DNA of 32,000 nucleotides from Cereibacter sphaeroides 2.4.1 (GTDB lineage: Bacteria; Pseudomonadota; Alphaproteobacteria; Rhodobacterales; Rhodobacteraceae), in contig NC_007493.2 in NCBI RefSeq assembly GCF_000012905.2, positions 2,340,001 through 2,372,000 of the forward strand, in the 5' to 3' direction. A program made the translations under genes and the position numbers. The first letter of the stretch is position 1; every line of letters starts with the position of its first letter. Positions 4,607 through 28,362 of this stretch are shown here, in pieces. Below the pieces are notes generated by a model. That model had not been told where the DNA came from, did no database searches, and worked only from the letters and a program-made list of their open reading frames with translations.

Positions 4607-4683
<77 letters not shown>

Positions 4684-4763: not shown

Positions 4764-5030
4764 TCATTTCCGTCGCCTCTCCATCGCCTCGACGGCGCTC
4801 GCCTGATGGTCCGGATGGTGGTGGGCATAAACCTCCTCCATCGTCTCCCGCGACACGCCGAAGAAACCGCCCGCCTCCCACATGTCGGCACCCCGCTGCA
4901 TCGCCCAGGTGATCGCCGTGTGGCGAAGGACATGCGGCGTCGTGTCGGACAGATCGATCTCGCGCCCCGCCTTCGCCGCCAATTCGGCGGCCTTCACCAC
5001 GGCTCCCGCCCAGGCCTTCTTGATGTCGGC
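4764..5030 (-). pseudogene. Tyrosine recombinase (phage-type integrase) C-terminal fragment, fused in frame to the cas3 relic
   Basis: The last ~88 aa of track ORF 4764..6443 read ADIKKAWAGAVVKAAELAAKAGREIDLSDTTPHVLRHTAITWAMQRGADMWEAGGFFGVSRETMEEVYAHHHP. This contains the HxLRHT box and the catalytic Tyr region of tyrosine recombinases. The N-terminal two thirds of an integrase are missing. The fragment points toward the tRNA-Arg 3' end. The junction position is approximate (+/- 15 nt). Confidence 0.75.
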
Positions 5031-6761
5031 GACCCGGTTGTCCCGCTCTCCGTCCCGACCGACACGCGCCAAAACCTCGGCCTCGATCCGCTTGCGATCC
5101 GCCAGGGCGAAGCGGGCGTGAAGCAGTTGGGCTGCCACGCTGCGCGCACGCAGCGCTGCGACCGCCTCGATTGCGTCATCCACCGAGTTTCGCACCCAGA
5201 CACAGGCCGCTCCCCTCCGCACCGCCTCCGCCAGAAGGTCGGCCGCGTCCTCGGCCTGCTGCACCCGGGTGACGCGAACGGCTCCCTTCACCGGACGTCT
5301 ATCGGGTGGAAATTCCACCCTCGCCTCCCCTCCCGCCAAGGTGAGCGCCGGGTAGGCAGGTCCCGGATTGTCTCCGCCATACGTCGCCAGCAAGCGTCCC
5401 CGCAATGCCATAGGCAGGGTCGCCGTCGGCAGAATGGCCGAACCTCCGGCCGCGCGGTGCGTCTGCAAGAGGCGCTCCAGTTCGCGCCCGATGTAGGGTT
5501 CGCCCATCTCATGCACCTCATCCTCAATCAGGATCTTGGAGGAGAGGCCGAAGTGCCGCAGGGTCTGGTGTCGGACAGGCAGCACGGAGAGCAGGGCCTG
5601 ATCGATCGTGCCCACCCCCACATCGGCCAGAAGGGCGCGACGGCGGCTTTCGGCAAGCCATTGGGTGCAGGATGCTGCATCCTCCGCTCGGGGCTTTCCG
5701 ACCACGAGGTCGCGGAAGCCCTCGGACAAGCCAGCGCGACCGTGTGCGAGAGTCAACGACGGCGCAGTCAGCATCCGTCCGATCACCTGTTCCGCGCGGC
5801 TGAACATCGCGTCGCTGGTCGCCATGGTGGGCAAGGCAAAGTAGAGACCGCGTCCCTTGCCTGCCGCGATCATCCGATGCGCCAGAAGGAGCGCCGCCTC
5901 GGTCTTGCCTGCGCCCGTTTCATCCTCGATCACGGCCAGCGTCGGGCCCGACGGCAACAGGATCTCGGCGCAGGCGGCCTGCAACGGGCGCAGCGCGAAG
6001 TCGAACAGGCGTCCCTGTTTCACGGCGCTCCCCGCCAGACCGGCCGCAGAGACGGCTTCTTCGGCGCGAGCCTGGGCGCAAGCCAGATAGGCCGCAAGTT
6101 CCGGCCGAGTGCCATCCGGCGGAAACCACATCATGTTGGAGCCAATCCAGTCTGCCGCCATGCGGAGCCCGGGAAGGCACCAAGACAAGGCGGTTGTATC
6201 CACCCCGCACTCGAGCCCCGACAGCGAGGCTTCGGGCCAAAGGTCACAAAGCGCCTCGATCACCTCGGCCGCCGGCTCCAGGCCCGAGCCTAAAGATGTG
6301 AGCGCCGCCCGAAGCCCCCGCGCGGCGGTCGGAAGCCCGGGCCGCCCACCGAGATCGAGATCCGACGGCTGGCCATGATGGCCGGCAACGGACGCGTAAA
6401 GCGCTTGCCGTTGGCGCCAGGTCCCGCCGATCCTTCTCGCCAACCGCTCGTCATGCGCGAAAAGAAGCGCCTCTGTCAGTTGCCAGTGCCTGAACTTCTA
6501 CGGCTGGCCGCTTTCGATCATGGCGCGGAAGCTGTCGCTGATCTTTCCAAGGTCGTGCAACGCCACGAGCAGCACGAGGGCGCCGCGCAACGCCGGCTCG
6601 AACTGGAAAGGTGCAATCAGGCGCTCGGCCACGGCCGCTACGTCCAGCATGTGCAGCACGGCGGAATGCCTGACGGTTGAGCCGTCCGGTGCACTCTTTC
6701 CGGGCCAATCGAAAAGCTGATTGGTTACCTCGCTCGCCGCCACTCTTCCCTGTCCGCCCAC
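5031..6761 (-). pseudogene. cas3: Type I-E-like CRISPR-associated nuclease/helicase Cas3, interrupted by an in-frame TAG and truncated at the 3' end
   Basis: The HD domain is in ORF 6498..6761 (FDWPGKS...HSAVLHMLDVAAVAERL...LLVALHDLGKISDSFR). The same frame continues after the TAG at 6500..6498 into VAGHHG, AADWIGS, VIEDETGAGKTEAALL (motif I), YFALPTMATSDAM, GVGTIDQALLSVLPVRH, ILIEDEVH (motif II), PTATLP (motif III) and LLHARFALADR. It is collinear with E. coli YgcB/Cas3 as I recall it. The match ends where Cas3 motifs V/VI and the C-terminal domain should follow. Confidence 0.8.
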
Positions 6762-13752: not shown

Positions 13753-14496
13753 ATGACGCGGCCCTTCACCTTGACGCGCCTGCGTAAGCCGCGCGGAGAG
13801 AGCCTGCCGGACCATTCCCACGGCGCGGCCCAGCTGACCTTCGCCGCCTCCGGCATGGTGCAGGTCCGCACGGAGGACGGCGTCTGGCTGGTTCCGCCCC
13901 AGCTGGCGGCCTGGATCCCGCCGGGTGCACCGCATCGTCTGGACATCCTGACAGATGCCGATCTGTGGATGATCTTCTGGGAGCCGTCGGCAATGGCCTG
14001 CTGGATGCCCGGGACCTTCCCCGCCCGCGCCTTCGTCTCGCGCGTGTCGCCGCTGCTGCGCTCGCTTCTGGATGCGGCCACGGCGGCCGATCCGGCATCG
14101 GAGAGGGTGGAGCTCATGGTCAGGCTGATCCTTCACGAATTGACAGCGACCGAGGAGGCGCCCACCTTCCTTCCGCGGCCGACGAGCGCGGAGGCTCGGC
14201 GCGTGGCGGATCTCGCGCTCGCTGACCGCCGTAACGAGCTGGACCTCGACACCCTTGCGCGCCGCGCGGCGACCTCTGTCCGCACGGCCAGCCGGCGGTT
14301 TCCGGAGGAGACCGGGATGACGCTGAAGGCCTGGCGCCAGCGCGCGCGCATCCTGTGGGCGATGACGCAACTCGGACAGGGCCAGCCCATCGCCCGGGTG
14401 GCCCGCGACGCGGGCTTCGCCAGCACGGCCGCCTTCTCTCATGCCTTCAGGCAGGTCACGACCGTCACGCCAAGCGCATTCCTCTCCCCGCCCTGA
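13753..14496 (+). CDS. AraC-family transcriptional regulator (cupin N-terminal domain)
   Basis: The cupin-like N-terminus reads HSHGAAQLTFAASG. The C-terminal AraC HTH reads TLARRAATSVRTASRRFPEETGMTLKAWRQRARI...GFASTAAFSHAFRQVTG-like. The gene is divergent from the MDR gene. Confidence 0.8.
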   Translation: MTRPFTLTRLRKPRGESLPDHSHGAAQLTFAASGMVQVRTEDGVWLVPPQLAAWIPPGAPHRLDILTDADLWMIFWEPSAMACWMPGTFPARAFVSRVSPLLRSLLDAATAADPASERVELMVRLILHELTATEEAPTFLPRPTSAEARRVADLALADRRNELDLDTLARRAATSVRTASRRFPEETGMTLKAWRQRARILWAMTQLGQGQPIARVARDAGFASTAAFSHAFRQVTTVTPSAFLSPP

Positions 14497-14834
14497 CGGG
14501 CCGCCTGTGCCTCCGATCTGGCTGCTGCGCCTGAACGGGAAAGCCGCATTGGGTGGCTGCTCCGCACCGCTGCGCGCGGCTTCGAGTAGCAGCAATGGGC
14601 CGGGTTCATCGGCCGCGCCAGGCGTGCCGCCCCGCACGCCATGTCCGCTCCTTGCACATGGCAGAGGGTCCGGCACGCCTCGGGTGCCGAACCAACGGCG
14701 AGACCGGCAGAGGCCGTCGAGAAACTCCCGGTCGGCTGCGCTGCTTGAACCCTTCCCATCAACCCAACCGGCGCAACGGTCCGGAACATCTTGACCTGTA
14801 CCGCATTAACGGCATCCGAAGAGAGGAGTTCGAC

Positions 14835-15107
14835 ATGGGATTTCTGGCACTTGACGTGACAAGGACGGGAGTGGTGCTGCGCAAGTTCGATGAACGCGGG
14901 ACGCGGATCCTCGAGCGCTTCAACACGCATGAGGTGGGGATGCGCCGGGCCCTGATCACGGCGCAGCGCGAGCTTGCCCGCGACGACGACCTGACTGAGG
15001 TTAGGGCAAATGTTCAGGAGCCCGAGCTGGCGCAGCGCCTCAAGCACTGTGTGACGACCGAAGCCAGTGACGGCGGCAAGCTTCAGGCGCTCGCAGACGC
15101 GCTCTGA
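14835..15107 (+). CDS. Hypothetical small protein (90 aa)
   Basis: The ATG at 14835 is preceded by GAGAGGAG with a 6-nt spacing. It is the in-frame part of track ORF 14553..15107. I recognised no family. Confidence 0.35.
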   Translation: MGFLALDVTRTGVVLRKFDERGTRILERFNTHEVGMRRALITAQRELARDDDLTEVRANVQEPELAQRLKHCVTTEASDGGKLQALADAL

Positions 15108-15576
15108 GTAGTGACGCCTGGCGCCTGTGGACGCGGGATGGTCAAGCCGCCCGCGCCTTCGCCGGCGCCCGAGAGCGCGGCCGAGATCGCACCATGGCCC
15201 TCGGCTTCGAGGAACCGGGCGGCGTTGTCCGGGGCGCCCTTGGTGCGGGCGAGCGCCTGGACCATGAAGCTTACAGCCACCCCGTGATGCGCCGGATCGG
15301 ACGCCACGGACGCCACGGCCGGCACGGCATCCGCGCAGCCGGAGAGCCCCGCCGCGGGCGAGGATGGGAAAGGGGCGACGGGGGAAGCCAGACGTCTCGG
15401 CTTAGGCGCGACGGGGACAAAGGCCGCGCGTCAAGGCGACGTCCGGGCACGACCCCGAGGCCGCTTTCGGAGCCGCGCCTCCTGCAGGGCGTCTCATCGT
15501 CGCAATTGAAGAGCGGTTCGAGCGAAGGATTGAAGGTGGCGGACTTTTTCGAAGGCTTCACGGAGCAGGCTGAACC

Positions 15577-15963
15577 ATGACGAAAACCGAGATCACCGAA
15601 GCCCACCGCGCCTATATCGCCTGCCTGAACCGTCAGGACTGGGAGAGGATTCACGAGCATGTGGCCGACCGGGTGACATATAATGGGGCCGTCATCGGGG
15701 TGCACGGCTACAGGAAGATGCTCGTCGAGGATTTTCGCGCGATCCCCGATCTTGCCTTCAACATCGCCCTGCTGGTCTGCGACCCTCCGGTCATCGCCAG
15801 CCGGCTGATCTTCGACTGCACGCCGAAAGACGTGCTCTTCGGATTGCCCGTGAATGGGAAACGTGTGCGGTTCGAGGAGAACGTCTTCTACCAATATCAG
15901 CAAGGGAAGATTGCGGCCGTCTGGTCGATCATCGACAAGGCGGCCGTGGCTGCACAACTCTGA
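15577..15963 (+). CDS. SnoaL-like ester cyclase / NTF2-fold protein
   Basis: 128 aa: AYIACLNRQDWERIHEHVADRVTYNG...YRKMLVEDFRAIPDLAFNI...ENVFYQYQQGKIAAVWSIID, the typical ester-cyclase pattern. Confidence 0.75.
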   Translation: MTKTEITEAHRAYIACLNRQDWERIHEHVADRVTYNGAVIGVHGYRKMLVEDFRAIPDLAFNIALLVCDPPVIASRLIFDCTPKDVLFGLPVNGKRVRFEENVFYQYQQGKIAAVWSIIDKAAVAAQL

Positions 15964-16441
15964 ATGCCTGCCGGAAGGGAGGCTCGGCCATGATGAGCGG
16001 CGCTCGGGCTGAAGGCGCACTCCGGGCTGGTTCATCGCTCCGACCGTCGCGGTTACATGATGCCGCGCCCATTCAAGCGGTCGATCGGATGGTCGGGCAT
16101 GACGCATCGGAGCCGCTATCGGGAGCGGCTCGCCGCGGCTTGCGGTCGCAGAGCTCCGGACCTGCCGCAGCGGGATCAGCCGGCAATGCCGGGCACGGGG
16201 AGTGCGGACTGCCCGGATATGAGTGATCTCGACCGATCTGAAACTGTCCGGTTTTGCCGCGGCTCAGGGCCTCCCGATATTGACCGCGCGGCCACATTCT
16301 CGGCGGGCGCCATGAAGATTGACGCACCCGGGCCGCCGCAAACCCCGGTGCGGCGCGGTGCGACCCTACGGCTTTTGGACATTGCGGTGCCGGGTGGCGG
16401 GCTCTAGTCTTCGCGCCATTCTATTGAAGTGACCGGGTTTC

Positions 16442-19400
16442 ATGGCGTTGCTGGGGTTCTTGCGATCGAGGCGAGAGGACAAGACGCCTCTCCTCGAGCG
16501 CTGTTTATCCGTCGATCTGGAAGTCCATCCCAAGACCGCCGAGATTTTCGACATGGCGGCGGTGCGGTTCGGGGATGGGCCGGCCGTCGTTGCGCCGAAG
16601 GCAAACATCCGGCAGGGACTGGATCGGCTCGAACAGGCGCTCGGCAAGGCCACGCATGTCGTAGGCCACAATATCCTGCGCCACGATATCGAGCATCTGC
16701 TGGCGGCGCGGCCGCAACTCCTCGAGAAGATGGCCGCGCCGATCGACACGCTCTGGCTCAATCCGCTGGCCTTTCCGCGCAACCCCTACCACCATCTCGT
16801 GAAGCATTATCACGACGGGCGGCTGCAGGCGGGGCATGTCAACGATCCCGAGCTCGATGCGCGTCTGGTATTCGAGGTGCTGGAAAACCAGATCGCCGCG
16901 CTGAGCGAGATCGGCGGGCGCTCGCCGGAAACCCTGATCGCCTATCACTATCTGGCCACCCGGATGGACCGGGCCGAGGGGTTCGACGCGGTCTTCTCCG
17001 AGATCCGCAGGGCACGGCAGCCCGATCGCGCCGAGGCGTTCGCGGCGATCCGGGGGCTGCTTGCCGGCAAGGCCTGCGGCGCACGGGTGGAGCCGGCGCT
17101 CGAGGCGCTGTCGGACCCGCGCGCGGGCTGGCCCATGGCCTATGCGCTGGCCTGGATCTCGGTTGCGGGCGGAGACTCGGTGATGCCGCCGTGGGTGCGC
17201 GCCGCCTTTCCGCAGGCAGCGCTGATCGTGCGCGATCTCAGGGATACCAACTGCGGCGACCCGGCCTGCGGCTGGTGCGCCGAGATGAACGACCCTGTGG
17301 GGGCTCTGCGGAAGTGGTTCGGGTTCGACGGCTTCCGTCCGCAGCCCGCGGACGCGCACGGCCGGCCGCTTCAGCAGGTCATCGTGGCCGAGGCGATGGC
17401 GCACCAGAATGTCCTCGGCATCCTGCCCACGGGCACGGGCAAGTCGGTGTGTTATCAGGTTCCGGCGCTGAGCCTGTTCGACAAGACCGGGGCGCTGACG
17501 GTGGTGATCTCGCCGCTCGTGGCGCTGATGGCCGATCAGGTGCAGGGGATGGAGCGGGCGGGGATCTCGTCGGCGGTGACCGTCAACGGCATGCTCTCGA
17601 TGCCCGAACGGCAGGACGCGCTGGATCGGGTGCGTCTCGGCCAGGCGGCGATCCTGCTGATTTCGCCCGAGCAGCTGCGCAGCGTCTCGGTCCGCGCCGT
17701 TCTGGCGCAGCGCGAGGTCGGGCTCTGGGTGCTGGACGAGGCGCATTGCGTCTCGAAATGGGGCCACGATTTCCGGCCCGACTACCGCTACATCGGGCGC
17801 TTCATCCGCGAGTTCTCGGGCGATGCGACGCCCGCGCCGGTGCTCTGCCTGACGGCCACGGCGAAGCCCGAGGTGGTGCGCGACATCACCGAGCATTTCC
17901 GCGGGCGTCTGGGGGTCGAGCTCGGGCTCTTCGACGGCGGGGCCACGCGGACGAACCTGACCTTCTCCGTGCTGGCCACGACGAAGGAAAGCAAGCTCGG
18001 CGACATCATGACGACGATCTCCGGCCATCTGCCGGCGGACGAGCGATCTGGCGCCGTCATCTACTGCGCAACCCGGGCAGAGACCGAACGCATCGCCGAG
18101 TTCCTGAAGCGTCAGGGGATTGCGGCCGAGCATTTCCACGCAGGCCTGACGCCCGACGACAAGCAGACGGTGCAGGAGCGTTTCCGCGTGGGCGATCTGC
18201 GGGTGATCGCGGCCACCAACGCCTTCGGCATGGGCATCGACAAGCCCGACATCCGGCTGGTGCTGCACGCCGACATTCCGGGCTCGCTCGAGAACTACCT
18301 GCAGGAGGCGGGCCGGGCCGGGCGAGACCGACAGCCCGCCGACTGCGTGCTGCTCTATCATTCCGACGATGTGGAGCGACAGTTCACCCTGACGGCGCGC
18401 TCGCGTCTCGAACGGCACGAGATCGGCGCCATCCTCAAGGCGCTGCGCCGCATCGACGAACACACCCGCAACAGCGGCAAGGTGGTGGCGAGCGCGGGCG
18501 AGATCGTGCGCGAGGAGAAGGACCGCGCCTTCGTGCGAGACAGCGCGACGGACGACACACGGGTCAAGACGGCGGTCTCGTGGCTGGAGGAAGCGACCCT
18601 CGTCTCGCGCGAGGAAAACCGGGTGCAGGTGTTTCCGTCGTCGCTTCTCGTTCGGACGCTCGCCGAGGCAGAGGCCCGGCTGGCGGGAGCCGGGATCACC
18701 CAAACGCGTCGCAGGCAGCTTCTCGGCATCGTGCGCCACGTCATTAACACGCCGCCCGATCAGGGCATTTCGACGGACGAGCTGACAGGCATCAGCGGGC
18801 TCACGCATCGAGCGCTCGGGAAGGCCATGGCCGATCTCGAAGCCCTTGGGATCGCGCGCAACGACCTCGCCCTCACGGTCTCCGTGCATGTGGGCATCGA
18901 GAACCAGTCGCGCCAGCGGCTGACGCGGGCGGTGCGGCTGGAAGAGGCGCTGATCGCGCGGATGCGCGAGCTTGCGCCCGAGGCCGATGTGGGCCAGGGC
19001 GCGCCGCTCGATCTGGCGGCCGCGAGCCAGGTTCTGCGGGGCGAAGGACACGAGGAGGCAAGCCCGCACATCCTCGACCGCCTTCTGCGCAGCATCGAGC
19101 GGGACGGGCGCGACAGCGACGGCGGGCGCGGCAACATCCGCCTGCGCAAACTTTCCAGCAAGACGCTGGAGGTGATCCTGCAACGCTCGTGGCGGGTGGT
19201 GGGCCAGACGGCCTCGGTGCGATGGGGGGCGGCCGAGAAACTGCTCGAAGTTCTGATCGGCAAGGTGCCCACCGGCACGAGGGGCAAGGACATTCAGGTC
19301 GAGACCACGGCGGGCGAGCTGCTGGCGGCGCTGAGCGGGGATGCGATCGCGGCGGCCGGCGTGAAGGACAGGACGAAGCTCATGGAGCGCGCGCTCCTCT

Positions 19401-21589
19401 GGCTGCACGAGCAGCAGGTGATGACGCTGGGCAAGGGACTGACGGTGTTCCGCTCGGCCATGACCATCCATCTCAAACCGGGACATGCGGGCTTCACCAA
19501 GAAGGATTTCCTGCCGCTGGAAGACCATTACCGCGAGCAGACCCTTCAGACCCATGTGATGGCCGCCTATGCCGAGAAGGGGCTGGAGCGGATCGAGGAA
19601 GCCGTGCGGCTCTCCGAAGATTATTTCGCGCTGGATCAGGAGAGCTTCCTGCGCCGCTGGATGCCCGGCCGCGGGGTCGAGCTCCGCCGCCAGACCACGG
19701 GCAAGGCGTGGAAGCAGATCGTCGAGGATCTGGGCAACCCGGTGCAGCAGGAGATCGTCGCCGACGACCGCGAGGAGACGAACGTGCTGGTGCTGGCCGG
19801 CCCCGGCTCGGGCAAGACGCGGGTGCTGGTCCATCGCATCGCCTATCTGCTGCGGGTGAAACGCGAGGACCCGAGAGGTATCCTCGTTCTCAGCTACAAC
19901 CGCCATGCCGCCGCCGAAATCCGGGCCCGGCTGCGCCATCTGGTGGGCGAGGACGCCGCGCGCGTGACCGTCTCGACCTGTCACGCGCTCGCGATGCGGC
20001 TGGTGGGCGCGAGTTTCACCGGCGGCACCGCCGAGCAGCACGACTTTCAGGACGTGCTGCGCGAGGCGGTGCGCCAGATCAATGGCGAGGGGTTGAGCCG
20101 CACCGAGGCCGAGGCCCAGCGCGAGGCGCTCATTCAGGGCTATCGCTGGATCCTCGTCGACGAATATCAGGACATCGGGCGCGAGGAATACGATCTCATC
20201 GCAGCGGTGGCCGGGCGCTCGCTCGAGGATCCCGACCAGCGGCTGAGCCTCTTTGCCGTGGGGGATGACGACCAGAACATCTACGCCTTCAATGGCGCCT
20301 CGGTCTCCTACATCCGCCGTTTCGAGGAGGATTACCGCGCGAGGCCCAAGTTCCTGACCGAGAATTACCGGTCGACCCGCCATATCGTGGAGGCGGCGAA
20401 CCAGGTCATCGAACCGGCCCGGGGGCGGATGAAGGCCCGCCATCCGATCACCGTGGACAAGATGCGCAGCCTCTATCCGGGGGGCGGCGCGATGGCGCGC
20501 CACGATCCGGTCGGTCAGGGACGGGTGCAGTTTCTGGATGTCGCTGCCGATGACACGGCGCAGGCGATGGCGGCGGTCGAGGAACTGGTGCGGATCGCGC
20601 GGCTCGATCCCGATTTCTCCTGGGCGCGCTGCGCGATCATCTCGCGCGACTGGCGCAGGCTCGGCCCGGTGCGGGCCTACGCCGAAAAGCTCGGCCTGCC
20701 GGTCGAGATGGCGAATGAGAAGCTGCCCAGCCTCTGGCGCCTGCGCGAGATGCAGCGCTTCGTGGCGAGCCTGAACCGGCGGCCGGCGGCGATGCTCACC
20801 ATCCCGGACATGCTCGAGCTGCTCAACGAACAGCGGTCGAACCGCTGGATCGATCTGATCGCCGAGGGCATCGCGGATCTCGCGCGCGAGCTGGGCCGGA
20901 AGACGATGCCGGTGCCCGACACGATCGAATGGGTGGCGGAATGGGCGCAGGATATCCGCAGCGCCCAGCGGGGGCTCCTGCTGCTGACCGCCCACCGCTC
21001 GAAGGGGCTCGAGTTCGACCATGTGGTGATCCTGAACGGCGGCTGGAAGACGCTGTCGCAGGGCGAGGACGGCGAGGCGCCCCGCCGCCTGTTCTATGTC
21101 GCCATGACCCGCGCACGCCGCAGCCTCGCAGTGGTCACCCACGGGCTCCATCCCTTCGTCGAGGCGGACAGCGATTGCGAGATGCTGCGCAGGGTCGAGA
21201 TGCCCCGCAGGCTCGATCTGCCGCAGCCGGATCACTATCAGGTTCCCGACATGGGCGTGGTCGACCTGTCCTATGCGGGCCGGCTGCCGGAGACGAGCCC
21301 CACGCTGGCCGCCATCGCCGCGGCTCAGGTCGAGGATCCCGTAACGATCGAGCGGCGCGAGGGGAAATGGCTGATCCTCGACCGACGTCGCCGTGTCCTC
21401 GGGCGCATGGCCGGTGGCTGGGCACCGCCCGAGGGGACCGATCTCGTGTCGGGCAAGGTGGGCGCCATCGTGCGCTGGCGCCGGTCGGACAATGAGGAGC
21501 GCTTCCAGAGCTACCTCAAACGCGAGGAATGGGAGACGATCCTGCCCGAATTCGTGTTCCGGAAGACCGCGCCCGCGCGCACCGTCTGA
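16442..21589 (+). CDS. Giant multidomain protein: DEDD 3'-5' exonuclease + RecQ-family SF2 helicase + unassigned wHTH-containing linker + UvrD/Rep-family SF1 helicase + unassigned C-terminal tail
   Basis: A single uninterrupted 1,715-codon ORF. Exonuclease motifs: SVDLEV, GHNILRHDIEHL and HVNDPELDA. RecQ motifs: FGFDGFRPQ, PTGTGKS, VLDEAH, LTATA, ATNAFGMGIDKPDIRLVLH and QEAGRAGRD. UvrD motifs: AGPGSGKT, ILVDEYQDI, FAVGDDDQNIYAFNGA, ENYRSTRHIV, TAHRSKGLEFDHVVIL and FYVAMTRARRSL. Confidence 0.9.
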   Translation: MALLGFLRSRREDKTPLLERCLSVDLEVHPKTAEIFDMAAVRFGDGPAVVAPKANIRQGLDRLEQALGKATHVVGHNILRHDIEHLLAARPQLLEKMAAPIDTLWLNPLAFPRNPYHHLVKHYHDGRLQAGHVNDPELDARLVFEVLENQIAALSEIGGRSPETLIAYHYLATRMDRAEGFDAVFSEIRRARQPDRAEAFAAIRGLLAGKACGARVEPALEALSDPRAGWPMAYALAWISVAGGDSVMPPWVRAAFPQAALIVRDLRDTNCGDPACGWCAEMNDPVGALRKWFGFDGFRPQPADAHGRPLQQVIVAEAMAHQNVLGILPTGTGKSVCYQVPALSLFDKTGALTVVISPLVALMADQVQGMERAGISSAVTVNGMLSMPERQDALDRVRLGQAAILLISPEQLRSVSVRAVLAQREVGLWVLDEAHCVSKWGHDFRPDYRYIGRFIREFSGDATPAPVLCLTATAKPEVVRDITEHFRGRLGVELGLFDGGATRTNLTFSVLATTKESKLGDIMTTISGHLPADERSGAVIYCATRAETERIAEFLKRQGIAAEHFHAGLTPDDKQTVQERFRVGDLRVIAATNAFGMGIDKPDIRLVLHADIPGSLENYLQEAGRAGRDRQPADCVLLYHSDDVERQFTLTARSRLERHEIGAILKALRRIDEHTRNSGKVVASAGEIVREEKDRAFVRDSATDDTRVKTAVSWLEEATLVSREENRVQVFPSSLLVRTLAEAEARLAGAGITQTRRRQLLGIVRHVINTPPDQGISTDELTGISGLTHRALGKAMADLEALGIARNDLALTVSVHVGIENQSRQRLTRAVRLEEALIARMRELAPEADVGQGAPLDLAAASQVLRGEGHEEASPHILDRLLRSIERDGRDSDGGRGNIRLRKLSSKTLEVILQRSWRVVGQTASVRWGAAEKLLEVLIGKVPTGTRGKDIQVETTAGELLAALSGDAIAAAGVKDRTKLMERALLWLHEQQVMTLGKGLTVFRSAMTIHLKPGHAGFTKKDFLPLEDHYREQTLQTHVMAAYAEKGLERIEEAVRLSEDYFALDQESFLRRWMPGRGVELRRQTTGKAWKQIVEDLGNPVQQEIVADDREETNVLVLAGPGSGKTRVLVHRIAYLLRVKREDPRGILVLSYNRHAAAEIRARLRHLVGEDAARVTVSTCHALAMRLVGASFTGGTAEQHDFQDVLREAVRQINGEGLSRTEAEAQREALIQGYRWILVDEYQDIGREEYDLIAAVAGRSLEDPDQRLSLFAVGDDDQNIYAFNGASVSYIRRFEEDYRARPKFLTENYRSTRHIVEAANQVIEPARGRMKARHPITVDKMRSLYPGGGAMARHDPVGQGRVQFLDVAADDTAQAMAAVEELVRIARLDPDFSWARCAIISRDWRRLGPVRAYAEKLGLPVEMANEKLPSLWRLREMQRFVASLNRRPAAMLTIPDMLELLNEQRSNRWIDLIAEGIADLARELGRKTMPVPDTIEWVAEWAQDIRSAQRGLLLLTAHRSKGLEFDHVVILNGGWKTLSQGEDGEAPRRLFYVAMTRARRSLAVVTHGLHPFVEADSDCEMLRRVEMPRRLDLPQPDHYQVPDMGVVDLSYAGRLPETSPTLAAIAAAQVEDPVTIERREGKWLILDRRRRVLGRMAGGWAPPEGTDLVSGKVGAIVRWRRSDNEERFQSYLKREEWETILPEFVFRKTAPARTV

Positions 21590-21867
21590 CGCAACAGGTC
21601 GGGATGCCCGGTCGACCCGCTCTCTGAGGCGGCGGCCTATCTGGTCCTGTCCTGGGTGCTGTACGGTCGATGGCTGCCCCTTGACCCGCAGGCTTCACCC
21701 TGAGCGAGGTCTCGGAGGCGGTCCCTCCTGCGCCGGACCGCGAAACCGGTGGAGGCACGTCGGGAAGGTGCGCACGGCGAGGCGGCACGGCCTTCGGTCT
21801 CTTCGCAGGCAAGCGGAAGATGCCGGTTCGAACCGGTTCAGACAGTGCAGACGACGGGAGAGGAGAG

Positions 21868-21943
21868 TGGTGCCCAGAGCCGGAATCGAACCAGCGACAC
21901 GCGTATTTTCAATCCGCTGCTCTACCAACTGAGCTATCTGGGC
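21868..21943 (-). tRNA. tRNA-Phe (anticodon GAA)
   Basis: The reverse complement folds as GCCCAGA ta GCTC agttggta GAGC a GCGGA ttGAAaa TACGC gtgtc GCTGG ttcgatt CCGGC TCTGGGC a CCA. There is one G30:A40 mismatch in the anticodon stem. Confidence 0.85.
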
Positions 21944-22031: not shown

Positions 22032-22214
22032 TCAGTGCCGGGGCGCTTCGGGATCGTCCGGGCGGCGGTCGTCCGGGGTCTCCTCCTCGTCGCCCAGAGC
22101 CGGGATCCGGTAGTTGCCCTTCAGCCAGTGGCCGAGATCCACGTCGGCACAGCGGCGCGAGCAGAAGGGGCGATAGCGCGCCTCGGCGGGGCGGCCACAG
22201 ATCGGGCAGGTCAC
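22032..22214 (-). CDS. yacG: DNA gyrase inhibitor YacG (zinc-finger protein)
   Basis: [31 protein letters not shown] shows the CxxC...CxxxC YacG pattern. Its GTG start overlaps the rng stop. Confidence 0.8.
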   Translation of the reverse strand: MTCPICGRPAEARYRPFCSRRCADVDLGHWLKGNYRIPALGDEEETPDDRRPDDPEAPRH

Positions 22215-27057: not shown

Positions 27058-28362
27058 TCAGCCCTCGTTCAGCCGGTCGAGCCGGGCGCGGACGGACAGG
27101 CCGTGCGCCTCGAGGCTCTCCGAAATGGCCAGCCGCTCGGCGGCGGGGCCCACGGCGCGCAGCGCCGCGGGCGTCATCCGGGCGAGCGTGGTGCGCTTGA
27201 GGAAATCCATCACCGACAGGCCGCTCGAGAAGCGCGCCGAGCGGGCGGTGGGCAGCACATGGTTCGGCCCGCCCACATAGTCGCCGATCGCCTCGGGCGT
27301 CCAGCCGCCGAGAAAGATCGCCCCCGCATGGCGGATCCGCGCGGCCAGCGCCTCGGGATCGGCCACGCACAGTTCGAGATGCTCGGGCGCCACCCGGTCC
27401 GACAGCGCCGCCGCCTCCTCCAGATCGCGCGTCACGATCACCGCCCCGTAGTCGCGCCACGAGGCGCCCGCGATCGCCCGCCGCTCGAGCGTCTCGAGCC
27501 GCGCCTCGACCGCCTGCACGACGGCCCGTCCGAGCGCCTCGTCGGGCGTGACGAGGATCGACTGCGCGCTCTCGTCATGCTCGGCCTGACTCAGAAGGTC
27601 GAGCGCGATCCAGTCGGGATCGACCGCGCCTTCCGCGATCACGAGGATCTCGGAGGGGCCCGCGATCATGTCGATCCCCACCCGGCCGAAGACCCGCCGC
27701 TTGGCCGCCGCCACATAGGCATTGCCCGGGCCGGTGATCTTGTCGACCGGCCGGATCGTCTCGGTGCCGTAGGCCAGCGCCGCCACCGCCTGCGCCCCGC
27801 CGATCCGGTAGACGGCATCCACGCCCGCCAGCCGCGCGGCCAGCAGCACCAGCGGATTGACCACGCCGCCCGGCGTGGGGCAGGCCACGACCAGCCGCTC
27901 CACTCCCGCGACCCTGGCGGGGATCGCATTCATCAGCACCGAGGACGGATAGGAGGCGAGCCCCCCCGGCACATAGAGCCCGGCCGAGGCGATGGGCCCC
28001 CAGCGCCAGCCGAGTTCGGCGCCGGCCGCATCGGTCCAGCGCGCATTCTCCGGCATCTGGCGGGCATGATAGGCCCGGATCCGCTCGGCCGCGAGCTCCA
28101 GCGCCGCGCGGTCCTCGGCAGATACGGTCGCGATCTCCGCCTCGATCTCCGCCTCCGAGAAGGCAAGCCGTTCGGGCGTCAGCTCCAGCCGGTCGAACCG
28201 CGCGGTCAGCTCGATCACCGCCGCATCCCCGCGCGCCCGCACATCCGCGATGATCCCGGCCACCACCGCATCGACATCGGGGCTGTCCTCGCGCTTCATG
28301 CCGAGAAGCGCGGTGAAATCCGCCTCGAAGCCGGGCCGACGGGTGTCGAGAAACTGGGGCAT
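27058..28362 (-). CDS. hisD: Histidinol dehydrogenase
   Basis: 434 aa with GLYVPGG, ITGPGNAYVAAAK, IDMIAGPSEILVIA, SQAEHD and PEHLEL. Confidence 0.95.
   Translation of the reverse strand: MPQFLDTRRPGFEADFTALLGMKREDSPDVDAVVAGIIADVRARGDAAVIELTARFDRLELTPERLAFSEAEIEAEIATVSAEDRAALELAAERIRAYHARQMPENARWTDAAGAELGWRWGPIASAGLYVPGGLASYPSSVLMNAIPARVAGVERLVVACPTPGGVVNPLVLLAARLAGVDAVYRIGGAQAVAALAYGTETIRPVDKITGPGNAYVAAAKRRVFGRVGIDMIAGPSEILVIAEGAVDPDWIALDLLSQAEHDESAQSILVTPDEALGRAVVQAVEARLETLERRAIAGASWRDYGAVIVTRDLEEAAALSDRVAPEHLELCVADPEALAARIRHAGAIFLGGWTPEAIGDYVGGPNHVLPTARSARFSSGLSVMDFLKRTTLARMTPAALRAVGPAAERLAISESLEAHGLSVRARLDRLNEG

Follow-up and report, generated by a model that had tools for sequence, protein, structure and literature searches.

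A single bacterial chain joining an exonuclease-fold domain, a RecQ-type motor and a UvrD-type motor: a mobile candidate for defence or genome surveillance in Cereibacter sphaeroides 2.4.1

What does a bacterium do with a single protein chain in which an exonuclease-like domain is joined to two helicase motors, each from a different superfamily? The question is raised by a gene of Cereibacter sphaeroides 2.4.1, found at positions 16442-21589 of a 32,000-nucleotide stretch of contig NC_007493.2 (RefSeq assembly GCF_000012905.2, positions 2,340,001 to 2,372,000 of the forward strand), the whole of which is called the window here. One chain joins a DEDD-fold domain, a RecQ-type motor of helicase superfamily 2 (SF2), a winged-helix-like array and a UvrD-type motor of superfamily 1 (SF1). 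The gene travels as a one-gene unit with its own short upstream region, and often has known defence genes around it and tRNA integration sites beside it. Our reading, to which we give a probability of roughly 45%, is that the product is a self-contained, horizontally mobile DNA-processing enzyme and a candidate for guarding the cell against foreign DNA, by defence or by genome surveillance. Association lends this reading partial support and falls short of proof.

The open reading frame (ORF) is complete, runs from an ATG through 1,715 amino acids to a stop codon on the forward strand, and corresponds to Q3J089 / ABA79795.1. The exact protein is carried by 24 contigs, and its 90%-identity cluster also includes strains KD131, WS8N, AKP1 and others. 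An earlier note on this DNA had described a single uninterrupted frame; the frame is indeed intact, and full-length members of the family keep the same layout at about 1,670-1,910 amino acids, constant down to about 30% identity. All the motifs quoted in that note lie at the residues it gave for them. The parts of the chain, all on the forward strand, are the following.

16442-16921, forward strand: DnaQ/DEDD-fold exonuclease-like domain, residues 1-160 (AlphaFold2 model, Foldseek, invariant residues)
16922-17305, forward strand: all-helical linker domain with a putative zinc site, residues 161-288 (AlphaFold2 model and four invariant cysteines)
17306-18376, forward strand: RecQ-family SF2 core, residues 289-645 (Pfam, NCBIfam and PDB matches)
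18377-19735, forward strand: family-specific middle region, residues 646-1098 (tandem helix-helix-helix-strand-strand units in the AlphaFold2 model)
19736-21139, forward strand: UvrD/Rep-type SF1 core, residues 1099-1566 (Pfam, NCBIfam and PDB matches)
21140-21586, forward strand: conserved C-terminal domain, residues 1567-1715, ending in W-E-x-P-x-x-E, with W1697 nearly invariant

Are all of these parts maintained? An alignment of the fusion protein with 50 homologues (34-52% identity, all 1,670-1,911 amino acids long) shows D25, E27, H76, D82, D102, K121 and D139 of the N-terminal domain to be invariant or nearly so, together with Q311, K334, DEAH 432-435, R625/R628, K1125, DEYQD, GDDDQ and R1310 of the helicases. 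From this conservation we conclude that purifying selection acts on each of the three modules.

The N-terminal domain had been taken for a DnaQ/DEDD exonuclease, and both its fold and its four acidic residues bear this out in part. Residues 1-288 give no Pfam match even at E<=10, and a profile search relates the Exo II region weakly (E ~1) to TREX1-like and T7 sequences. The AlphaFold2 model of the same residues, built on 55 homologues, reaches a mean pLDDT (predicted local distance difference test) of 87.9. Its top Foldseek matches are all proteins bearing a DEDD 3'-5' exonuclease domain, namely S. aureus DinG, Plex9.1 (a TREX1 homologue, with a target-normalised template modelling score of 0.51), T7, Pol II and family-B polymerase chains, at probabilities of about 0.9-1.0 yet E values of only 2.5e-3 to 1e-1. 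A DnaQ/RNase H-like DEDD fold is supported by the modelled structure, but not by the sequence models.

The characteristic residues of this domain are D25, E27, H76-N77, D82, D102-T103, Y116-H117...K121 and N134-D135-P136...D139. D25 and E27 are each kept in 49 of the 51 aligned sequences, the other two being gapped there, and D82 and D139 are each kept in all 51. The fifth catalytic residue of such enzymes, sought in Exo III as H-x4-D or Y-x3-D, is where the exonuclease assignment fell short: the residues five and four places before D139 are N134 and D135, the first of these positions is Asn in 42 of the 51 divergent homologues, and H132 of the HVNDPELDA stretch is not conserved. The register that puts the His/Tyr position at N134 was set by hand against E. 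coli DnaQ, and the spacing from D102 to D139 is presumably nearly equal to that of DnaQ. With Asn at this position, the exonuclease may therefore not be catalytically canonical. The invariant Y116, H117 and K121 could stand in for the absent His or Tyr.

RefSeq models of the fusion protein and its orthologues are often 1,676-1,679 amino acids long, which by the length difference places their start at the equivalent of Met38. Such a start (residues 1-38 are window positions 16442-16555) removes the Exo I residues D25 and E27, and this deletion is part of the reason why the exonuclease-like domain escaped notice. The longer start is backed by tblastn homology and by 49 of the 51 divergent homologues. 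Behind the exonuclease-like domain, the cysteine cluster that had been seen ahead of the RecQ core is present in the linker, with its membership corrected to the four invariant residues C212, C271, C276 and C279; this Cys4 cluster probably binds zinc.

The two motors are more readily placed. The first scores 302.7 bits over residues 308-657 under the recQ_fam model (TIGR00614), whose cutoff is 219.8, and falls below the canonical RecQ equivalogs (354.3 against 640.2 bits for TIGR01389; 264.9 against 1015 for NF008279). Pfam finds DEAD at 308-480 and Helicase_C at 534-629, and RecQ, RECQ1, BLM, RECQ5 and WRN are its sequence matches in the PDB. Its Walker A lysine is K334, its DEAH box lies at 432-435 and its arginine finger is R625/R628. 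The motif 0 glutamine had been placed in 'FRPQ'; the invariant one is Q311, which follows a 9-residue insertion. No Pfam match to RecQ_Zn_bind, RQC or HRDC occurs in the fusion protein, as had been noticed, and the RecQ-side PDB alignments end at about residues 645-675.

The second motor carries the full UvrD/Rep motif set that was originally described. UvrD-helicase (PF00580, from residue 1099) scores 137.1 bits against a cutoff of 23 and UvrD_C (PF13361, residues 1512-1566) 53.6 against 25.6, which places it in the UvrD/Rep/PcrA (SF1A) family; UvrD, PcrA and Rep are its sequence matches in the PDB. The motifs are K1125, DEYQD 1240-1244, GDDDQ 1274-1278, R1310 and R1557, the first four being invariant. 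The core reaches none of the orthologue cutoffs within the family: uvrD 152 against 1144 bits, pcrA 165 against 911, rep 120 against 951, and helicase IV 136 against 543.

Two regions were left unassigned by the earlier note, and rightly so, because neither residues 651-1100 nor 1566-1715 gives a Pfam match even at E<=10. The AlphaFold2 model of the middle region (pLDDT 90.5) consists of repeated helix-helix-helix-strand-strand units. Foldseek returns nothing significant for it; the best matches, RPC62, ESCRT-II and RTP at E>=0.036, are proteins with several winged helices. RPC62 is a four-winged-helix protein. From this secondary-structure pattern and the weak Foldseek matches, the middle region looks like a tandem winged-helix-like array. 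For the tail, a profile of 33 sequences searched against the PDB found at best a BglG domain (E=0.75). A nuclease of RecB/AddA type was considered for the tail and rejected, because its alignment holds no invariant acidic, basic or other catalytic-type residues.

How does this architecture compare with enzymes already known? The eukaryotic WRN was the first likeness to be drawn. An exonuclease-fold domain followed by a RecQ SF2 core, in that N-to-C order, is indeed common to both, and the RecQ core aligns with that of WRN at E ~ 1e-46. The likeness does not extend to the full WRN type (DEDDy exonuclease, RecQ, RQC and HRDC). The fusion protein is without RQC and HRDC, its N-terminal domain is undetected by the Pfam DEDD models, it has Asn at the catalytic Tyr/His position, and it adds the winged-helix-like array of about 450 residues and a whole UvrD-type SF1 helicase. 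WRN is moreover a eukaryotic protein, and the fusion gene is bacterial and horizontally mobile.

This comparison leads to an alternative, in which the protein is an accessory enzyme of repair or recombination that does in bacteria what WRN does in eukaryotes. Its exonuclease-like domain and RecQ core would work on stalled or regressed forks and on the ends of double-strand breaks, with the UvrD module serving as anti-recombinase or as a translocase that displaces proteins. We consider it somewhat unlikely. The exonuclease and RecQ layout speaks in its favour, as does strong homology to the structures of WRN, BLM, RECQ1 and UvrD/PcrA. So does the DinG of S. aureus, which likewise fuses a DEDD domain to a repair helicase. 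DinG (of S. aureus or B. subtilis; 8zef, 9ii8) is also the best structural match of the N-terminal domain, with the exonuclease fold N-terminal to the helicase. The structural similarity is weak (E 2.5e-3), and DinG is without a second motor. The helicase of DinG is a 5'-3' motor of XPD/Rad3 type, not RecQ or UvrD.

Known defence enzymes offer further partial likenesses. The best PADLOC matches to residues 285-690 are DpdF (3e-113) and PsyrT (2e-93), and they concern the RecQ core only. The DpdF model NF041063 scores 201.5 against a cutoff of 550 bits, and the window holds no dpd genes. The PsyrT match covers positions 23-379 of a 689-position profile, and a PsyrA/DprA-like partner is neither present in the window nor recurrent among the neighbours of the 80 related loci described below. 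The UvrD-like SF1 core matches GajB models at 5e-56, partially and in pieces; GajB is a protein of about 500-600 amino acids without RecQ or exonuclease modules. The window has no GajA; one related locus has a GajA neighbour. The gene is assigned neither to Gabija nor to the DpdF or PsyrTA systems.

Similar in general plan are the single-protein helicase-nucleases Nhi, Hna and Hhe, and RecBCD/AddAB, in which one or more helicase motors work together with a nuclease-type domain on DNA that is foreign or broken. In RecBCD the motors run with opposite polarity and the nuclease is of the PD-(D/E)xK type, and none of these enzymes is known to combine SF2 RecQ with SF1 UvrD. Hhe differs by its DUF4011, AAA_11/12 and MTES_1575 domains, and Nhi and Hna have a domain content that differs from that of the fusion protein (in part PMC11232893). 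Of the 86 models in PADLOC-DB 2.0.0 with a match, none of the 25 best-scoring spans more than one module, and NCBIfam has no full-length model. Full-text literature searches, accession numbers included, returned no description of the family or the architecture. The kind of enzyme, a helicase-nuclease fusion, is already known. The full architecture itself is undescribed in the searched libraries and literature, in keeping with the earlier note, which did not recognise it as a named bacterial repair protein or defence system.

How widely does this gene occur, and how has it spread? In a library of 1.84 billion proteins clustered at 50% identity, the middle region matches 875 clusters, and there it always lies at about residues 640-1110 of proteins of about 1,700 amino acids. 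When genomes, one for each species, were scanned with a sequence pattern, at least 582 of them proved to carry the fusion gene, among them Rhodobacterales, Rhizobiales, Geminicoccus, one gammaproteobacterium and some oddly placed metagenome-assembled genomes (MAGs). Members of the family occur in Alpha- and Gammaproteobacteria, Cyanobacteria and Bacteroidota.

For a closer view we use the 80 loci most similar to the C. sphaeroides protein, here the related loci, a set biased towards Alphaproteobacteria. In nearly every one of them the only tblastn alignment is a full-length one, 62-88% identical. The copies of Rhizobium, Agrobacterium and Mesorhizobium are 67-68% identical to it, higher than the 62-66% of Roseovarius and Ruegeria from the same order, and five genera share copies that are 89-97% identical. 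Between genera, DNA homology is confined to 16381-21590, which is the ORF plus about 60 bp upstream. Truncated copies away from contig ends are found in about 5 of the 80 loci. The distribution is patchy and horizontal. It spans several orders, classes and phyla, and the similarity of the copies is at odds with taxonomy. The same patchy, horizontal pattern and the truncated copies stand against a WRN analogue, while the high sequence conservation and the presence of the gene across C. sphaeroides strains favour it.

Copies 67-76% identical also occur in MAGs, at L023 (CP059262.1, labelled Exiguobacterium profundum), L061 (Vicinamibacterales) and L083 (Phycisphaeraceae). These are labelled Firmicutes, Acidobacteriota and Planctomycetota, and they reflect either recent long-range transfer or an error of binning or contamination.

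If the gene moves, it might also be working for the elements that move it, in their maintenance, replication or recombination, in anti-defence or in competition between elements. Full-length copies do reside on 17 plasmids or chromids, with divergent plasmid or chromid copies in Thiothrix, Allochromatium, Nostoc, Scytonema, Bacteroides and Aliarcobacter. A second full-length paralogue, 65% identical, lies on plasmid p.A of C. sphaeroides EBL0706 (about 298 kb; L088, CP031752.1 173103-178232) near an H-NS gene and two toxin-antitoxin pairs, and plasmids of C. azotoformans also carry such a paralogue. The related loci have tRNA genes, IS110, IS66 and IS21 elements and integrases nearby, and there are five matches to viral contigs. 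Most of the carrier plasmids, however, are large, chromid-like and typed non-mobilizable, genes for conjugation, replication or partition are not conserved neighbours in the related loci, and the transferred unit is the gene alone. We regard service to mobile elements as improbable. A phage origin is rejected: no full-length copy exists among 50,697 phage records, and each of the 5 matches among 2.9 million viral contigs is close to the end of its contig, where host DNA beside a prophage would be expected.

What, then, stands beside the gene where it has settled? In about one third of the related loci a recognised defence gene is directly adjacent, a raw and approximate fraction (PADLOC output aggregated over proteins). 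Clustering of the flanking ORFs of the 80 loci reveals no universal partner gene, and the median intergenic gaps are about 400 bp on either side of the fusion gene. The neighbours that recur directly upstream are a TagI-like HNH_2 nuclease (11 loci and 2 remnants), Hhe (4 loci), a type IV restriction enzyme of PLD-ResIII-DUF3427 composition (4 loci) and a module of WYL and HEPN genes (5-6 loci). Single strong first or second neighbours are ZorD, type I HsdR, DrmD, GajA, UG9 reverse transcriptase, RTasPolA, the CBASS cyclase, PtuA and DarT. The copy on the Allochromatium plasmid adjoins a type I restriction-modification system and an HNH gene, and that of Novosphingobium adjoins HATPase_c_3, HEPN_RES_NTD1 and HNH_2 genes.

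The HNH_2 association is limited to two subclades. The nuclease has 307 amino acids, resembles the restriction endonuclease TagI (PDB 6ghs, E 6e-5) and is encoded on the same strand about 130 bp upstream, as in L080 (2192-3112), L066 (8947-9867), L081, L085, L074, L070, L059 and L065. An older version, with an HNH protein only 45% identical, occurs in L030 and L035, and remnants occur in L075 and L077. The pair of HNH and helicase is 89-97% identical in Roseovarius, Cribrihabitans, Maritimibacter, Lentibacter and an unclassified MAG. In Ruegeria (L077) the helicase is about 94% identical and the HNH gene is reduced to a remnant. The HNH_2 protein may be a functional partner within its subclade, or may reflect shared island ancestry.

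The Hhe-type protein, whose name is assigned from a table in PMC11232893, has 1,963 amino acids with DUF4011, AAA_11/12, MTES_1575 and DUF3320, and is encoded upstream on the same strand as the helicase (L032 3996-9884; L036 3972-9857; L046 138-6026). Its 94% identity across Tritonibacter, Alloyangia and Pararhodobacter suggests that Hhe and the fusion helicase form a recently transferred two-gene block.

The HEPN protein, so named by NCBI, is highly conserved, with 221 amino acids, the R-x4-H motif 'LRNQLVH' and 4,329 homologues, and has no Pfam or PDB match (L038 9134-9796, L040, L049, L055 and L068; L096-L100). A WYL-WCX regulator gene always precedes it. The WYL and HEPN pair was considered as a dedicated partner and rejected, as it is an independent module that also adjoins McrBC, RNase_H_2-AAA_11/12 helicase and SNF2 genes.

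Downstream of the gene a different pattern appears. With the window's own site (L001 and L002) counted once, 12 distinct loci have a tRNA gene in the 2.5 kb downstream of the gene, and only 1 has a tRNA in the 2.5 kb upstream. The nearest downstream tRNAs represent eight amino-acid specificities, and 10 of them are on the opposite strand. Such a pattern would be expected where a gene sits at the border of an island integrated at a tRNA.

These surroundings bear on the repair reading as well. That genes of restriction systems, Hhe, Zorya, DISARM, Gabija and DRT are repeatedly found beside the fusion gene stands against a WRN analogue, and so does the observation that no locus among the 80 links it to further repair genes. 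An alpha-type LexA box (GTTC-N7-GTTC / GAAC-N7-GAAC) within 400 bp upstream was found in 1 of 84 loci, a frequency equal to background, so that SOS regulation is rejected, which also counts against a repair enzyme. In favour of the WRN analogue are the many loci without defence genes and the third-position G+C content (GC3) of the fusion ORF, which at 0.87 is typical of the host genes in the window.

In the window itself, two further features lie beside the gene.

21868-21943, reverse strand: tRNA-Phe(GAA), 278 bp past the stop codon, its 3' end facing the 3' end of the gene
16382-16410, forward strand: promoter-like motif TTGCGG (16382-16387), 17 nt, TAGTCT (16405-16410), about 32 bp before the ATG

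Could the gene simply be a vertically inherited housekeeping helicase of the Rhodobacterales, whose length is incidental? The same site, with a variable region, the gene, tRNA-Phe, yacG and rng in that order, is found in Cereibacter and in Gemmobacter aquarius, and the gene is conserved in C. sphaeroides strains; local inheritance may therefore be vertical. Among the compared inter-genus loci, the downstream synteny of tRNA-Phe, yacG and rng is common only to Gemmobacter aquarius. In nearly every other genus the flanks differ. Similarity is incongruent with taxonomy, the family crosses phyla, and plasmid paralogues and decayed copies exist. The conserved synteny that would have spoken against the earlier proposal is seen at this one site only, and we hold the housekeeping explanation to be very improbable.

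The short upstream region that travels with the gene is also visible in the DNA. By blastn, homology to the loci of R. capsulatus, Rhodovulum tesquicola, Sedimentitalea and Rhodobacter viridis starts at 16381-16435. The TTGCGG/TAGTCT motif, compared by eye, stands at equal distance from the gene in these four relatives, and the DNA further upstream of it is unrelated. A strict sigma-70 consensus scan of the flanks called no promoter, this motif included; from its conservation we infer that it is probably a promoter.

Several observations must be weighed against a role in defence, and we gather them here. The upstream neighbours in the window are miscellaneous regulators and enzymes, that is, ordinary metabolic and regulatory genes, and downstream follow the core genes yacG, rng, maf, infA, hisD and murA. 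Many strains of C. sphaeroides carry the gene, and its chromosomal site is shared with Gemmobacter aquarius. In many of the related loci, too, the neighbours are ordinary metabolic or transport genes. The identity of 62-88% over the full length across genera makes the protein unusually well conserved for a defence gene. The adjacency of one third must be read with the restrictions stated for it, and the related loci with their bias towards Alphaproteobacteria. N-terminal exonuclease activity is plausible and may be non-canonical. Finally, both motor families move 3'-5', which makes a bipolar model like that of RecBCD unlikely. The proposal of the earlier note, a defence candidate, finds its support in the patchy distribution, the mobility and the defence-rich related loci; it draws no strength from the ordinary and core neighbours in the window or from an attachment repeat.

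Such a repeat was sought at the tRNA-Phe. The 3' end of this tRNA has no further copy in the window at up to 3 mismatches, there are no convincing direct repeats, and an island integrated at tRNA-Phe is accordingly rejected for the window. A 16-nt stretch of the tRNA 3' arm, GCCCAGAGCCGGAATC (21872-21887), does recur with one mismatch at 22092-22107, 220 bp away. This second copy falls in the yacG region, on the far side of the tRNA, and is probably due to chance; being on the wrong side, it cannot serve as an attachment (att) site for the helicase segment.

The remaining surroundings of the gene can be described briefly. The closest upstream gene with a family match is SnoaL, which ends at 15963. 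A 116-residue ORF at 16057-16407 is called by one of two annotations and has no Pfam match; none of the small ORFs at 14439-16407 has one. In the flanks, Rfam at E<=0.1 returned no non-coding RNA other than tRNA, and terminator-like sites occur at the rate of shuffled sequence.

The 'integrase and cas3 debris' that had been associated with the gene exists as one chimeric ORF about 10 kb upstream. It encodes 559 amino acids at 4764-6443 on the reverse strand, beside tRNA-Arg (4607-4683, forward strand), and comprises a truncated Cas3 (partial HD domain, DEAD, Cas3-like_C_2) followed by a C-terminal fragment of a tyrosine integrase at residues 489-544. It looks like the scar of a tRNA-Arg-integrated island that disrupted cas3 or fused with it. 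On the downstream side, hisD lies between UPF0262 and DUF2948 in the window (about 27058-28362) and in L001 (20617-21921), and the C. sphaeroides assembly GCA_009767555.1 (L002 20614-20892) is without hisD, a 52-residue ORF being called instead.

How might a defence enzyme of this architecture work? We put forward, tentatively and with confidence that falls well short of even, that the protein is a stand-alone, single-polypeptide candidate immune enzyme, the founding member of its kind, and would be the first machine known to combine a RecQ SF2 motor, a UvrD SF1 motor and a non-canonical DEDD domain. It would have spread horizontally through Proteobacteria, Cyanobacteria and Bacteroidota, would recognise and dismantle replication intermediates of phages and plasmids, and in some lineages would act with an adjacent, swappable nuclease (TagI-like HNH, Hhe or PLD-type restriction enzyme).

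The steps of this mechanism as a whole are derived from the properties of the families. Characterised members of the RecQ and UvrD families translocate 3'-to-5' on single-stranded DNA, and by family both motors of the fusion protein would be expected to do the same. When phage or plasmid DNA enters or replicates, the enzyme would load on it at single-stranded 3' tails, at nicks or at branched intermediates of replication. The RecQ core would unwind the duplex, possibly with the first winged helix as a strand-separation pin, and the UvrD module would unwind from nicks or strip bound proteins. The N-terminal domain would bind, and probably trim, the freed 3' end. The DNA of the invader would in the end be dismantled or degraded in the manner of Nhi, Hna or RecBCD. 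Telling self from non-self, or regulating the enzyme, may fall to the middle array and the C-terminal domain.

Whichever reading proves right, the family comprises 875 clusters at 50% identity and is now annotated just as 'RecQ family helicase'. If the protein acts in repair, bacteria would possess a counterpart of WRN extended by a UvrD module, one that would bear on how exonuclease and helicase are coordinated at forks. If it acts in defence, a large, cross-phylum single-gene system would be added to the catalogue of helicase-nuclease immunity, and the genetically amenable C. sphaeroides 2.4.1 would provide a model for the cooperation of motors from two superfamilies within one chain.

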